In this document: piece by piece, positions 8,610 through 18,641 of the stretch | Layout: each line of letters opens with the position of its first letter | Numbering within the stretch: position 1 is the first letter of the stretch | From: Verrucomicrobiota bacterium | GTDB lineage: Bacteria; Verrucomicrobiota; Verrucomicrobiia; Limisphaerales; UBA11358 | Direction: 5' to 3' | Length of the DNA stretch: 64,000 nucleotides | NCBI GenBank assembly: GCA_049523555.1 | Contig: JBEKMU010000010.1 | Coordinates: 1,395 to 65,394, forward strand | Position numbers and translations under genes: made by a program | The notes under the pieces: generated by a model | Told to the model about the DNA's origin: nothing | Databases searched by the model: none | What the model saw: only the letters and a program-made list of their open reading frames with translations

Positions 8610-9449
8610 ATGAACATTCTCGACACCATTGTTGAGCAAAAGAAACGTGAGGTCGCGCAACTGCCTGCGCGACTCATCGCCGCCGGCGATTTGCGCGATG
8701 CGCTGCTCGAACGCGGCGAGAGGCGCGATTTTCTCGCGGCCTTGTGCCAGTCGCGTCATGGCGACATCGCGCTGATCGCCGAGGTCAAAAAGGCGTCGCC
8801 ATCGGCGGGCGTGATTTGCCAGGACTTTGACCCGGTCCGCATCGCCAAAGAATACGAAGCGGCGGGTGCAAGTTGCCTGTCGGTTTTAACTGACGAAAAA
8901 TTCTTTCAAGGTTCGCTCGATTATCTCCAGCAAATCCGCGCAGCGGTGAAGCTGCCGTTGTTGCGGAAGGACTTCATCATTGATGAGCGGCAAATCCTCG
9001 AGGCCATCGAATGGGGCGCGGACGCCATCCTGCTCATCGTCGCCATTTTGAGCGACGACCAATTGAAAAAGTTCCATTCGCTGGCGACCGAAGCCGGCTT
9101 GGCTGCATTGGTTGAGGTTCACGACGAAGCGGAATTGGAACGCGCGCTGAAAATTGGCGCGAATTTGATCGGCGTCAACAACCGCGATTTAAGAACTTTC
9201 AAGATGGATTTGGCGACGACAGAAAAACTGGCGGCAGAATTAAACCGTAGGACAGGCGTCTCGCCTGTCTCTAAAATTAAAAATGGAGACAGGCAGGATG
9301 TCTGTCCCACGCTTGTTGCCGAAAGCGGCATTCACACGCGCGCGGACGTGGAGCGGTTGAAGAAATGCGGCGCTAACGCAATTTTGGTCGGCGAATCATT
9401 GATGCGCGGTGGTGATATTCAATCCAAAATCCGCGATTTGATCGGGTGA
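8610..9449 (+). CDS. trpC: indole-3-glycerol phosphate synthase carrying an in-frame palindromic-element insertion
   Basis: KKASPS, NNRDL and ESGI blocks. About 20 extra residues (RRTGVSPVSKIKNGDRQDVCPT) are encoded by the repeat at 9247..9310. Confidence 0.9.
   Translation: MNILDTIVEQKKREVAQLPARLIAAGDLRDALLERGERRDFLAALCQSRHGDIALIAEVKKASPSAGVICQDFDPVRIAKEYEAAGASCLSVLTDEKFFQGSLDYLQQIRAAVKLPLLRKDFIIDERQILEAIEWGADAILLIVAILSDDQLKKFHSLATEAGLAALVEVHDEAELERALKIGANLIGVNNRDLRTFKMDLATTEKLAAELNRRTGVSPVSKIKNGDRQDVCPTLVAESGIHTRADVERLKKCGANAILVGESLMRGGDIQSKIRDLIG
9247..9310. repeat. REPIN-like element, family A (GTAGGACAGGCG...), inside trpC
   Basis: 64 bp with two inverted hairpin units and GTAG / C(C)AC termini. 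About 85% identical (reverse orientation) to 17772..17835. Confidence 0.8.
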
Positions 9450-15244: not shown

Positions 15245-16264
15245 TTACTGTGGCAATTGTGAGATTTGAAAACCTAGCTCACGAGCGCGCTCGATGAATT
15301 TACCGATATTGCTCACAGCCCACTCATTACAGACTACTACTTTCTTTTCGTCGCCGGTTAAAAGAGTGTCTTCTTCATCCGGAAAGTATCTCCGATAACC
15401 TGTTCGTTTGATAATCTCCTGTCCCCTTTCTTGCGGGGCGAAGACACCCCACGAGCCTTGCAATGAATCCGGAAATGCCACTTTCAATTCTTCGAAAGTT
15501 GTTTTGGGTTTATCTTGAAGATATACCCTGACAACTGCGAGAACCAGTCGGCTCTTCGCAAGTGCTTCGCCACCGAAATTATATTTTGTGTAATCCTTCT
15601 GGCGGGCCTCTCTGCGTTGTTCAGCTTGGGCACGGAGCTTAACTTGGTAATCTCCCGCATCGGGTAGTGGTATAATTTGTTGAACATCCAACAAGATTTG
15701 ACCGCCACTTCGGTATGGTTTTAAACGAACACACCGAATATCCAAGTCGCGCTCATTTAGCCAGAGAACGCTAGTTGTGAGTTCTTGAGAAAATTCGGCG
15801 GCAGCGAGAACAATTCGGACATCGCTTGCAAATTGATCAGCGTGCGGTTCTTGCCATCCTAAAAAAACAAGCAATTCCTGTCTCGCATTCTTGGCCTGTT
15901 GCGTCTTGCGAAGAAAATCTTCGTAAATCTGGACAGCTTTGTCGAATGTGAGAGTAGAAAGCATGGCTGCATAACGAACTGCTTGGAGCTCCATGTAACT
16001 TCCTGAATCATTTCGTTTCAATTCGACAACCACTAGGTTTGCGTGGTCGTCAACGCCGAGCAAATCCACTCGCGATTTGGTGTCTTCCCAATCAGAAAAC
16101 TCTTCTGCAATGACAAGTGTTCTTGGAGAGATGATGTCAATTTTTTCTCGAAGCATTCGCTGCAAGTCTCGGCGCTCAAGAATCCCTTCCACCTCAAAAC
16201 TGGTGGATTGGATTGCGGCCAAGGATTTATTTTCGATTTTGTAGATTGCCATTTTATCCTCCAA
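15245..16264 (-). CDS. NucS/DUF91-like PD-(D/E)xK nuclease-fold protein (single-gene AT-rich island)
   Basis: Motif EEFS...RVDLLGVDDHANLVVVELKR...LQAVRYAAML. Markedly AT-rich. The start at 16264 overlaps the argJ stop by 11 nt; an alternative ATG is at 16252. Confidence 0.7.
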   Translation of the reverse strand: MEDKMAIYKIENKSLAAIQSTSFEVEGILERRDLQRMLREKIDIISPRTLVIAEEFSDWEDTKSRVDLLGVDDHANLVVVELKRNDSGSYMELQAVRYAAMLSTLTFDKAVQIYEDFLRKTQQAKNARQELLVFLGWQEPHADQFASDVRIVLAAAEFSQELTTSVLWLNERDLDIRCVRLKPYRSGGQILLDVQQIIPLPDAGDYQVKLRAQAEQRREARQKDYTKYNFGGEALAKSRLVLAVVRVYLQDKPKTTFEELKVAFPDSLQGSWGVFAPQERGQEIIKRTGYRRYFPDEEDTLLTGDEKKVVVCNEWAVSNIGKFIERARELGFQISQLPQ

Positions 16265-17723
16265 GCGTTGTTGGATCCGCTACGTCGCCCTTGTTGAAAT
16301 CCACGTATGCTTCCGTCAAATCGGCGGCGTAAATCACCGCGCCGGCCCGGCCGAGGTTCAGGTTGATGTGCAAATCAAATTCCTTCGGCGCCGCGGCGGT
16401 ACAGAGCTGCTTGAATGTCGCCTTCGTCGGCTGCCCATGTTTCAAGCTCCAGAGAATTTTTCTGCGGCCGTCTCGTCGCGCCGAAGCGTCAGACGCGAAG
16501 GCGGAGCTGTAACCGATGTCCACCTTCTCCTCGACGATTTTTGCCGCGGAATAACCGAGCGCGTCAATGATGCGGCCCCAGTTCGGGTCGCCGCCATGCC
16601 AGCTTGTCTTCACCAGCGGACTGTTGGCCACCGCCCGAGCCGCGGCATCGGCGTCCTGAACCGTCTTCGCGCCGTTTACCCGCACCGTCACCACGCGATG
16701 AACGCCCTCACCGTCGCGCACAATCATCTTCGCCAGCTCCAGACAGACGTGGTTGAGAGCTGACTGAAACGTCGTCAAATCGCGTAGCCGCGCTTGTGAA
16801 AGCGCGGATTTCCGCGAACTTACGTTCGCGGCTACAAGCGAAGGGTTTCCTGCGAGTCCATTCGCCAGCACCAGCACCGTGTCGTTGGTGCTCATGTCGC
16901 CATCCACGGTGATGCGATTGAAGCTCTGCGCGACGGCTTCCTGCAAAGCGGCCTGCAAAGTTTTCGCTTCAATCGCCGCATCGGTGGTAATGAAACAAAG
17001 CATCGTCGCGTGCAGCGCGGCGGGCCGCGCGCCGGTGGCGGACATCATCGGCTGAATCATGCCCGCGCCCTTGCAAATGCCGCCGATACGGACGGCTTTG
17101 CCGCCCAGCTTGAATTCAACCGCGATTTGTTTGGGCCGTGTGTCGCTCGTCATGATGGCTTCGGCAGCCTGGTCCGCGTGACTTGATGAATTCCCTAGCA
17201 GTTTTGCCGCCTCCAAAATTCCACGTTTGACGTTTCCCATCGGCATGGTGACGCCAATGCGTCCAGTCGAGCCGACCAAAACACGTTCGGCGGGCAATTC
17301 GTAGCTGCGTTCGTTAGAACGCGGCTGATCTTTTCGCGAAGAAGATGGCCGCGAACTCATCCCGCACAACGGGACAGCTACGGTGTGGGCGGTGACGCGC
17401 GTCATTTCCATGGCATCCTTAAAACCCTGTTTTCCCGTGCAGGCATTGGCGTTGCCGGAATTGACGACGATGGCCTGTGCAGCTCCCCTTTTCACGCGTT
17501 CGACGCATACCCTCACCGGTGCGGCACAAACCTGATTGGTCGTAAACATGCCGGCAACTGACGCCGGGACCTTGGACACAATCAGCGCGAGATCGCGTTT
17601 TTGTCCCTTGTTAGAGCCTTTGCCCGTGCCGAGGCGTTTGATGTCGCAAAATACGCCGCCGGCGAGGAAGCCTTTGGGTGCGACGATGGAACCTGAAATT
17701 TCTTTGAACGGATTTTTGCTCAT
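16254..17723 (-). CDS. argJ: bifunctional ornithine acetyltransferase / N-acetylglutamate synthase, unusually long (489 aa) because of internal insertions
   Basis: KGF..GG, NSGNANACTG, the autoprocessing site ATML and DGEG blocks are present. Canonical ArgJ is ~400-410 aa. At least two insertions coincide with palindromic repeats. Confidence 0.9.
   Translation of the reverse strand: MSKNPFKEISGSIVAPKGFLAGGVFCDIKRLGTGKGSNKGQKRDLALIVSKVPASVAGMFTTNQVCAAPVRVCVERVKRGAAQAIVVNSGNANACTGKQGFKDAMEMTRVTAHTVAVPLCGMSSRPSSSRKDQPRSNERSYELPAERVLVGSTGRIGVTMPMGNVKRGILEAAKLLGNSSSHADQAAEAIMTSDTRPKQIAVEFKLGGKAVRIGGICKGAGMIQPMMSATGARPAALHATMLCFITTDAAIEAKTLQAALQEAVAQSFNRITVDGDMSTNDTVLVLANGLAGNPSLVAANVSSRKSALSQARLRDLTTFQSALNHVCLELAKMIVRDGEGVHRVVTVRVNGAKTVQDADAAARAVANSPLVKTSWHGGDPNWGRIIDALGYSAAKIVEEKVDIGYSSAFASDASARRDGRRKILWSLKHGQPTKATFKQLCTAAAPKEFDLHINLNLGRAGAVIYAADLTEAYVDFNKGDVADPTTLGG
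16784..16835. repeat. REPIN-like element, family C (GTAGCCGCG...CGCGGCTAC), inside argJ
   Basis: GTAGCCGCGCTTGTGAAAGCGCGG + ATTT + CCGCGAACTTACGTTCGCGGCTAC, i.e. two 8-bp-stem hairpins in inverted orientation. It encodes ~VAANVSSRKSALSQARL. Confidence 0.75.
17301..17381. repeat. 81-bp GTAGCTGCG...CAGCTAC palindromic element inside argJ
   Basis: GTAGCTGCGTTCGTTAGAACGCGG... ...GGGACAGCTAC contains several internal hairpins. It is exactly 27 codons and matches a ~27-aa insertion before the conserved STG.IG block. Confidence 0.65.
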
Positions 17724-17771
17724 TGTTCGGCTGAGAATTTGCGGGCGATGGAAAATATTTTCAACTCGAAT

Positions 17772-17835
17772 GTAGGACAGGCGTCCCGCCTGTCTCCATT
17801 TTTTAAGTCAGAGACAGGCGCGACGCCTGTCCTAC
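17772..17835. repeat. REPIN-like element, family A, intergenic copy
   Basis: GTAGGACAGGCGTCCCGCCTGTCTCC...GAGACAGGCGCGACGCCTGTCCTAC. It supplies the last codon and the TAG stop (17832-17834) of the methyltransferase gene. Confidence 0.8.
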
Positions 17836-18641
17836 GTTTTTATCGCATCAATTTCCAGCCGCACCATGCGGACGTGGACGCGCCCGGCCGCGTCCGGTGG
17901 ATGTTGGGCGAGGTATCGGTCTGCAACAGCAGCGATGAAATCCTCGCGCAAATTTTCCGGCACGCGCTGCGTGTAAGGCAGCCAAGTCGTGCGCAACCAT
18001 GCCGTAAAGCTTTTGCCGTCGCCGTAGATGGCATCCTTCGGCGACAGGCGCACACCCAAAGATTTGAACCCAAATCGCGGCAGCCATTTTTCATAACTGT
18101 CCGGGCTGTGAAAGAAATACGGCTTTTCCATCCTTCGGAAAAATTCGCACCAGCGTTTGAGCCGCATTTCCGGGCGCAACGCAACGAATATATCCTGCGC
18201 GTTGCCCTTGCCGCCGCACGAAATCACCAACTGTCCGCCGGAACGCAGACACGCCGCCGCCCGGCGCAAAAACGCCTCATGATCGTCCACCCAATGCATG
18301 GTGGCGTTAGAAAAAACGAGGTCGAATTGCCGCTCAACCCGGATTTGGCGCGCGTCCATCACCCGGAATTTCAAATTGGCAATTTTGCCTGAGGGAAAAG
18401 CGGCGCGGGCGAATCTGATCATTTGCGGCGAGGCATCAATGCCGACCACGAAACCGTGCGGCACGGCGTGGGCGATTTCGGCGCTGATCTTGCCGTCGCC
18501 ACAGCCGACATCGAGGACGTGCTCATCGCCCCGCAGGTTGAGCCTGGCGATGAGTTCGCGCGCCCAGGCTTGCTGCACGACGGAATTCGCGGCGTAATCG
18601 GCAGCATTCCATTTGGCGGGTTGTGAAGCAATTCGAGGCAT
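17832..18641 (-). CDS. class I SAM-dependent methyltransferase (trans-aconitate methyltransferase-like)
   Basis: VLDVGCGDGKIS motif I and DLVFSNATMHWV. Start trimmed to the ATG at 18641. Confidence 0.8.
   Translation of the reverse strand: MPRIASQPAKWNAADYAANSVVQQAWARELIARLNLRGDEHVLDVGCGDGKISAEIAHAVPHGFVVGIDASPQMIRFARAAFPSGKIANLKFRVMDARQIRVERQFDLVFSNATMHWVDDHEAFLRRAAACLRSGGQLVISCGGKGNAQDIFVALRPEMRLKRWCEFFRRMEKPYFFHSPDSYEKWLPRFGFKSLGVRLSPKDAIYGDGKSFTAWLRTTWLPYTQRVPENLREDFIAAVADRYLAQHPPDAAGRVHVRMVRLEIDAIKT

Follow-up and report, generated by a model that had tools for sequence, protein, structure and literature searches.

Three loops of an over-long ArgJ enzyme in a verrucomicrobial genome are probably encoded by palindromic and other repeat DNA

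Why is the argJ gene of a Verrucomicrobiota bacterium of the order Limisphaerales longer than its counterparts elsewhere, and where did its extra codons come from? The gene lies in a stretch of 64,000 nucleotides (the window; GenBank assembly GCA_049523555.1, contig JBEKMU010000010.1, positions 1,395 to 65,394) of a metagenome-assembled genome (MAG) of 3.13 Mb in 192 contigs, which is 92% complete and has 56.7% G+C. Its product has 489 residues. Distant full-length ArgJ homologues have 397-430, so the gene is about 60-90 codons over the usual length. An initial annotation, made from the letters alone, had put the surplus at about 80 codons, named six extra segments, and proposed repeated in-frame colonization by elements like the repetitive extragenic palindromes (REPs). 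The estimate of length was borne out by the distant homologues, and SATGARPAALH, SSAFASDASARRDG, LGTGKGSNKG and the KGDVADPTTLGG tail were all found as extra segments where they had been placed. The colonization proposal held for three of the six segments. In three loops of ArgJ, the extra residues very probably come from short mobile or repeat DNA, transcribed and translated within an intact gene. The gene and its extra segments are as follows, with confidence of the structural model given as pLDDT (predicted local distance difference test).

16254..17723, minus strand: argJ coding sequence, 489 aa, the single argJ match in the 92%-complete assembly
17604..17633, minus strand: LGTGKGSNKG loop, aa 31-40, clade-specific, pLDDT 51
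17301..17381, minus strand: site 1, palindromic GTAG...CTAC element of 81 nt (27 codons), aa 115-141, encoding VAVPLCGMSSRPSSSRKDQPRSNERSY
17008..17040, minus strand: site 2, SATGARPAALH(A) loop directly before Thr240, a lineage loop, pLDDT 50
16784..16835, minus strand: site 3, REP doublet of 52 nt, aa 297-314, encoding VAANVSSRKSALSQARLR
16468..16508 (approximate; core 16477-16504), minus strand: site 4, short non-GTAG repeat, aa 406-419, encoding roughly SSAFASDASARRDG
16257..16292, minus strand: C-terminal tail KGDVADPTTLGG, aa 478-489, clade-specific extension (DPTTLGG), pLDDT 52

The gene itself appears to be in good order. The Pfam ArgJ profile, PF01960, matched the open reading frame (ORF) with E = 1.4e-123 and 412.8 bits (cut-off 32), and the match spans residues 39-477 of the ORF and positions 10-372 of the 377 in the model. 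The product aligns with the sequences of solved ArgJ or ornithine acetyltransferase (OAT) structures in the PDB, and its ATML motif aligns with residue 1 of their beta chains. In a 103-sequence alignment, all 22 invariant columns were kept in the window's ArgJ. These include T240 of ATML, the autoprocessing nucleophile (codon at 17004-17006), as well as K218/G219, T153/G154, T192/D194/K198, E339, and N477. argJ was present in 40 of 41 related genomes and was without stops in the genus. The initial annotation had allowed for a second intact argJ elsewhere; a genome-wide search of the 92%-complete MAG gave one match only. As read from the sequence and the model, argJ is intact and is probably a functional, single-copy gene. 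Its named closest homologues are labelled Limisphaerales or Verrucomicrobia, and the sequencing runs in which it occurs are peat and wetland metagenomes.

Next to this sequence evidence stands a structural model. The AlphaFold (AF2) model of ArgJ had a pLDDT of 89.8 and a predicted TM score (pTM) of 0.91, and a Foldseek search paired it with OAT/ArgJ structures at target-normalised TM scores of 0.88-0.92. The pairing with 1vz8_B (E = 2.8e-38, target-normalised TM 0.89) supports the alpha-beta-beta-alpha OAT fold for the model. Weak 10-residue blocks were seen in the N-terminal half at aa 31-40 (pLDDT 51), 121-140 (60 and 58), and 231-240 (50), and in the C-terminal half at aa 301-310 (69), 411-420 (58), and 481-489 (52). 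These low-confidence blocks are exactly the six extra segments, and there are no others. In the model, site 1 follows helix 97-119 and precedes strand 148-155, site 3 comes after strand 282-287 and ahead of helix 307-337, and site 4 is in a beta-hairpin formed by strands 402-407 and 424-428. By these positions, the inserts lie outside the N-terminal nucleophile (Ntn) hydrolase core in the model. The three insert-bearing loops are putative surface loops.

The DNA of site 3 has the form of two inverted hairpins, GTAGCCGCGCTTGTGAAAGCGCGG-ATTT-CCGCGAACTTACGTTCGCGGCTAC, with perfect 8-bp stems, 4-nt loops, and GTAG/CTAC ends, exactly as first quoted. Four nucleotides separate the 8-bp stems, and the whole lies inside a 25-nt inverted pair. 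The predicted folding energy was -28.0 kcal/mol (z = -5.2), and the GTAG and CTAC ends pair in the folds. A full-length copy was found at 4636-4687 of contig C116, with 86.5% identity over 52 nt, in frame within the aconitase gene. There it is read in another frame, giving GSRARESAGNRELTFAAT where ArgJ has VAANVSSRKSALSQARLR, which marks the unit as a DNA element rather than a protein module. Two further doublets of the same family start at C28:466 and C59:16573. An explicit stem scan for single units of the form GTAGC[CT]GC plus an 8-bp stem and a 4-nt loop (family C, which includes one unit of site 1) found 16 in the genome and 6 in a reversed-genome control. Because the reversed genome keeps its hairpins, this control overestimates chance matches and is conservative. 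The stems of family C units vary, and each change is fully compensated: CGAAC/GTTCG, CGCTT/AAGCG, CCGAT/ATCGG, and CGTTT/AAACG.

Relatives were compared in two alignments, one of the 120 closest homologues (75-100% identity) and one of argJ from 30 species genomes, of which 20 belong to the window's genus and nine to other families of the order. The site 3 doublet of the window replaces a loop of about 11 residues that relatives have. Relatives show at that place one of at least five palindromic doublet classes, or a short loop of 10-11 residues, which in many species is encoded by a 7-nt unit, such as (AAAGTTC)n, (GAATTCA)n, (CGATTCA)n, or (AACATTC)n, repeated four to five times. Whatever the class, the borders of the insert vary by no more than one codon (GN-xxx-[insert]-[D/E]-[F/L]-xx-FQ).

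Site 1 had been described as 81 bp, or 27 codons, just before the conserved STGxIG motif. The size and frame were right, and the element ends 11 residues before STGRIG. It begins in frame 0, has 8-nt complementary ends (GTAGCTG...CAGCTAC) in an inverted repeat scan, and has a folding energy of -31.7 kcal/mol (z = -2.8). On the plus strand, the right-hand unit of site 1 reads GTAGCTGCGTTCGTTAGAACGCGG; it belongs to family C and has the same GTAG plus stem-loop form as site 3. Taking a REP to be GTAG at one end of a G+C-rich stem-loop with a stem of 5-13 bp and a loop of 2-20 nt, both units of site 3 and the right-hand unit of site 1 have the form of REPs. The other unit of site 1 contains a nested 14-nt mini-hairpin relative to the VAANMSSRP form of relatives. 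A likely progenitor, GTAGCTGCGAACATGAGTTCGCGG...CCGCGTTCTGACGAACGCAGCTAC, is present in relative L051, and in the window's copy one half-stem of this form is replaced by the 14-nt mini-hairpin. Of the 30 aligned species genomes, 27 have no insert at site 1, and among the 120 homologues the site is empty in 33. The rest of the homologues have six mutually unrelated classes of peptide, or seven if class a with and without a VPLCG stretch is counted apart.

Some homologues, P0115, P0101, and P0012 (498-512 aa), have even longer inserts than the window's gene. In P0115, site 1 is twice as long (ISREGRHVAVPKIRDSGPSSVAILRRVDMLSLPK) and LPLQRFNAST is added to the loop before ATML. ArgJ can thus tolerate more than is seen in the window's copy.

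Site 4 is a short repeat that is distinct from the GTAG-tagged family of sites 1 and 3. Its core in the mRNA sense is CCGCCTTCGCGTCTGACGCTTCGGCGCG. The family pattern, CCGCCTTCGC-N-GCTTCGGCGCG, had 12 matches in the genome and 0 in the reversed-genome control. The insert is absent from 70 of the 120 homologues, and two repeat classes occur among the others, the second of which, AAPASAKSASARQ, was found in 15 homologues.

Taken together, the states of sites 1, 3, and 4 combine almost without restriction, with 48 combinations among the 120 homologues. All the long alternative inserts examined at sites 1 and 3 are long palindromes at the DNA level. Most of them end in GTAG...CTAC or GTGG...CCAC and fold, with short flanks, at -37 to -50 kcal/mol. 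On a tree built from 357 core columns, from which all variable sites had been removed, the minimum numbers of state changes were 33, 43, and 35 for sites 1, 3, and 4, where 6, 6, and 3 would suffice. Shuffled labels required more changes (67, 62, and 44), so some vertical signal remains. The insert class differed even between pairs with 96.6-98.3% core identity. The allele P0007, which has three inserts, was indexed as identical in 34 collection blocks; 24 of the contigs were read, and some are 0.2-1 Mb long. These identical alleles argue against a pure assembly artefact.

Coverage of the gene was also seen in four peat metagenome runs (X1-X4) over positions 16100-17900 of the window. Summed contig depth was hundreds-fold in the conserved blocks of argJ and 5-35 over the three insert sites. 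Contigs from peat metagenomes end at the argJ repeats, a pattern that suits many co-existing strains with a common core and inserts that are not common. Mapping of the peat contigs gave fragments of many strains, and their joints were not readable as clean empty sites.

Repeats inside genes are not confined to argJ in this genome. A strict search for GTAG...CTAC doublets (16-nt arms with at least 13 matches) found 75. In 24 of these, an open frame runs through the doublet and extends for at least 80 codons to either side; the same holds for 55% of random 60-nt windows. The strict search missed site 3 of argJ, so its counts are lower bounds. A simpler test, whether any ORF of at least 200 aa spans the doublet, was dropped because of false positives such as an antisense ORF over 17771-17834, and was replaced by the requirement for 80 codons on both sides together with Pfam checks. 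By Pfam, in-frame doublets fall within domains of DnaE, LeuRS, AlaRS, MutS, aconitase, PurL, GlnE, Mfd, and CstA. DnaE (C1:41132-44890), MutS (C96:2943-5750), and PurL (C72:4505-7030) each have two or three separate in-frame repeat segments, for example, NVGQASSLSQTSKEKNGDRQDAGPT and NVGQASSLSPSENKEIRNRQDACPT in DnaE and SVGPSCRSAL...AQQRVPT and SVGRADLPVGQDAQQRVPT in MutS. The occupation of one gene by several repeats is thus not special to argJ. The window also contains the doublets listed below, and the genome encodes candidate sources of mobility.

9247-9310, within the trpC ORF 8610..9449 (plus strand): in-frame doublet of 64 nt of the GTAGGACAGGCG family, read as ...RRTGVSPVSKIKNGDRQDVCPTLV..., with the ORF uninterrupted
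17771..17834, no strand assigned: REP doublet from the abundant GTAGGACAGGCG family, in the intergenic stretch that separates argJ from a methyltransferase gene
C18:28378-28722, C14:7513-7854, C48:5458-5691, C39:20528-20755, and C3:1372-1707: matches to the Y1 transposase domain, five of the seven in the genome

The doublet at 17771-17834 had a folding energy of -49.5 kcal/mol (z = -11.1) and 104 BLAST matches in the genome, and it shows that the GTAG REPs of this genome also occupy the classical extragenic position. Of the seven matches to Y1_Tnp (PF01797), the one on C18 is a strong match and is flanked on both sides by GTAGCC-tagged hairpins, GTAGCCGTGGGATTCATCCCACGG and CCGGGGCTTGAAAAGCCCCGGCTAC, which have a shape like that of family C and different stems. 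The Y1 gene on C48 has repeated GTAGCGGCAACCATCCTTGGTTGCCG units at its flanks. The C18 and C48 arrangements both resemble REPtrons.

Seven nucleotides is by far the commonest period of tandem repeats in this genome, with 395 arrays at a low threshold of Tandem Repeats Finder (TRF), typically of about four copies. Two arrays are often paired in inverted orientation at a distance of about 20 nt, as in ATTTACG x4 ... CGTAAAT x4. Among relatives, such arrays fill the site 3 loop of ArgJ with the frame kept in L011-L016, L023, L024, and L004. They recall the heptamer short tandemly repeated repetitive (STRR) sequences of cyanobacteria.

The surroundings of argJ also differ among relatives. In L048, L049, and L051, argJ is followed directly by ilvC, which encodes ketol-acid reductoisomerase (KARI). 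In the window, a 339-aa ORF (15245-16264, minus strand) stands in between, and its first 11 nt are also the last of argJ. Since argJ and ilvC are adjacent in those three relatives, the ORF appears to be an insertion specific to this genome.

These findings suggest the following explanation. Sites 1 and 3 would be GTAG-tagged REP doublets of one family, similar to the REP doublet-forming hairpins known as REPINs, and the genome's Y1 transposases of the RAYT type (REP-associated tyrosine transposases) may have spread such elements. Inserts of this kind could persist because they bring no stop in the gene's frame, keep that frame, and fall in loops outside the Ntn-hydrolase core; with an open frame in such loops, they would be neutral or nearly so. 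The extra residues would then be present in the mature alpha and beta chains. Among relatives, the repeats in the three loops would be lost, regained, or replaced by other palindromic families or 7-nt arrays, and this turnover appears to be much faster than change in the core protein.

Several points weigh against this explanation. BLAST found no second full-length copy of the 81-nt site 1 element in the genome, and only its units resemble family C. That family is small, with about 16 units, the control is imperfect, and the MAG is fragmented. No RAYT gene flanked by exact family C units was found in the genome. The low pLDDT of the inserts is perhaps partly due to their absence from most of the aligned sequences. 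No RNA run contains the gene, so that translation of the inserts is deduced from maintenance of the frame, and the 92% completeness of the MAG leaves some room for a second argJ. The mosaic of states among relatives could also partly reflect recombination between strains or chimeric metagenome contigs rather than independent insertions.

A bolder form of the same idea is that the sites are landing pads, where the resident repeat is the target for the next one, through RAYT-type cutting and replacement at the GTAG/CTAC ends or through slippage of 7-nt units. We consider this unlikely. If it were true, essential enzymes of this lineage would have hypervariable loops that behave like cassettes and are exchanged far more quickly than the cores change, and genomes of the Limisphaerales type would be a natural experiment on the movement of REPs and on the tolerance of proteins to random loop insertions. 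In a wilder variant, some of the inserts would be skipped or removed at the level of RNA or translation.

Another possible explanation is that the inserts have been recruited for a function, either as surfaces for protein contact or regulation or as mRNA hairpins that tune the stability or translation of argJ. Every allele seen remains open and in frame, helix 307-337 is extended at its N-terminus by part of the site 3 insert in the model, and the class a peptide of site 1 is fairly well conserved among the 40 homologues that have it. Possible roles of REPs at the RNA level have been discussed (Di Nocera et al. 2013, PMC3733652). However, many relatives have empty sites or unrelated peptides, turnover is fast compared with the core, and the same elements occur in many unrelated enzymes. 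Moreover, it is the pairing of the nucleic acid that is conserved and not the peptide. For these reasons, recruitment seems quite improbable.

There is still less to recommend the view that all the extra segments are ordinary lineage loops under protein selection, with palindromes arising from GC-rich codons for Ala, Arg, and Pro, and as a general account we think it very improbable. It is true for three of the segments. SATGARPAALH, an 11-residue insertion relative to the PDB ArgJ/OAT sequences (aa 228-238), occurs in 120 of 120 close homologues with small indels after 'PAA', and LGTGKGSNKG and the DPTTLGG tail each have at least 90% occupancy in that set and are conserved across the 30 species genomes. 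All three are present in a representative with 73% identity. The 55%-identical P0124 keeps the tail and has a shorter N-terminal loop and a shorter loop before ATML, and '...H-ATML' loops also occur in distant ArgJ proteins, some of them eukaryotic-looking. Relatives share these segments with or without the repeats, which makes them lineage loops. The segments at aa 31-40, aa 228-238, and the C-terminus are, as judged from the alignments, older lineage-specific loops without a link to repeats. For sites 1, 3, and 4, the same view is contradicted by the copies of the site 3 and site 4 repeats elsewhere in the genome, one of them translated in another frame, and by the empty sites in most species of the same genus. 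Unrelated peptides also stand at the same codons, each of them a long hairpin in the DNA, and the stem changes are compensated.

The segment beside the self-cleavage site had been singled out in the initial annotation as an especially notable repeat insertion, and this did not hold up. The GCGCGG/CCGCGC hairpin in the SATGARPAALH loop folds no better than shuffled sequence (z = -0.1), and its other matches in the genome are only 13-16-mers, as expected in GC-rich DNA. With the loop in all relatives and no copies beyond such chance matches, the hairpin was ruled out as a REP. After autoprocessing, the loop would form a free C-terminal tail of the alpha chain, which is plausibly why it tolerates indels after 'PAA'.

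It is scarcely credible that argJ is decaying or an artefact of assembly, either a pseudogene or the product of chimeric contigs, with arginine made by another route. The MAG is fragmented into 192 contigs, and peat metagenome contigs break at the repeats, where depth falls. Against this stand the intact frame with all invariant residues, the presence of the gene in 40 of 41 relatives and its freedom from stops in the genus, the same insert-bearing alleles in many independent assemblies, and a confident model of the fold. An intein or intron was rejected, as no such domains are present and every insert is open and in frame.

The insertion of short mobile or repeat DNA into three loops of ArgJ thus remains the preferred reading, and it bears on several fields. 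The gene is a clean and well-populated example of palindromic mobile DNA in an essential enzyme gene, with empty, alternative, and heptamer-repeat states at the same codons among hundreds of environmental relatives. For work on REPs and REPINs, it offers a lineage with a large intragenic share, where a protein clock could serve to date the gain, exchange, and loss of elements. In annotation, it accounts for over-long housekeeping proteins and for low-complexity peptides such as VGQASSLS...DRQDACPT that recur in verrucomicrobial proteomes. For protein engineering, it gives a map of the ArgJ loops that accept 10-27 unrelated residues.

How does the locus compare with known systems? As an enzyme, it is like the ArgJ/OAT proteins of known structure (PDB 1VZ6, 1VRA, and 3IT4) in fold, ATML site, and invariant active-site residues. 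Its six extra loops or tails, of which three are repeat-encoded, make it longer than these proteins by about 80-95 residues. As for the repeats, classical REPINs are almost entirely extragenic. REPIN/RAYT systems are known in Pseudomonas and E. coli (Bertels and Rainey; Nunvar et al.; Park et al. 2021). The present genome resembles them in having inverted REP doublets that form a long hairpin, the GTAG tag, and Y1 (IS200-like) genes flanked by REP-like hairpins. In contrast, the copies in argJ are inside the reading frame and so are not extragenic, which leaves the 'E' of REP without application.

The Rickettsia palindromic elements (RPEs), which Ogata and colleagues reportedly presented in 2000 and 2002 as 'selfish DNA in protein-coding genes', are said to lie in frame in functional and often essential protein genes, to be translated, and to be thought surface-located. 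Like the hosts of RPEs, argJ and other genes of this genome have taken up elements in frame and have remained open and conserved. RPE-1 is longer (about 100-150 bp), has no GTAG doublets, and belongs to an obligate intracellular alphaproteobacterium; given the differences in length, tag, and phylum, no relation in sequence is expected, and the likeness would be in behaviour only.

The closest parallel is the GTAG superfamily of REPs defined by Di Nocera, De Gregorio & Rocco (2013, BMC Genomics 14:522; PMC3733652). That study found that genes of known proteins can contain REPs, most numerously in the verrucomicrobium Opitutus terrae, where dimers are arranged head-to-head or tail-to-tail, 1-2 bp apart, and encode about 20-30 residues. 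Some ORFs were hit twice, and recB of two Xanthomonas species had different REPs at roughly one position. The same study described subfamilies with alternative complementary stem residues and a GTGG variant of the tag, and compared intragenic REPs with the in-frame RPEs of Rickettsia. The elements in argJ of the window and its relatives share with these REPs the tag beside a stem-loop, the compensated stems, the dimers, the reading within a protein, more than one hit in an ORF, different elements at one site, and the GTGG variant. The argJ case therefore fits that description and represents a known kind, not a new kind of system, although the exchange of elements at fixed positions is unusually clear in it. 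A literature search found no paper on intragenic REPs for Limisphaerales. The present case differs in the order of bacteria, which is Limisphaerales-like, in the families of repeats, in the host gene, which encodes a biosynthetic enzyme with three occupied loops, and in the population data on empty and alternative states, including the 7-nt arrays that compete at one site. What it adds to the earlier description is the presence of three such loops in one enzyme, dense evidence that the same codons are emptied and refilled by many families, and competition from the 7-nt arrays.

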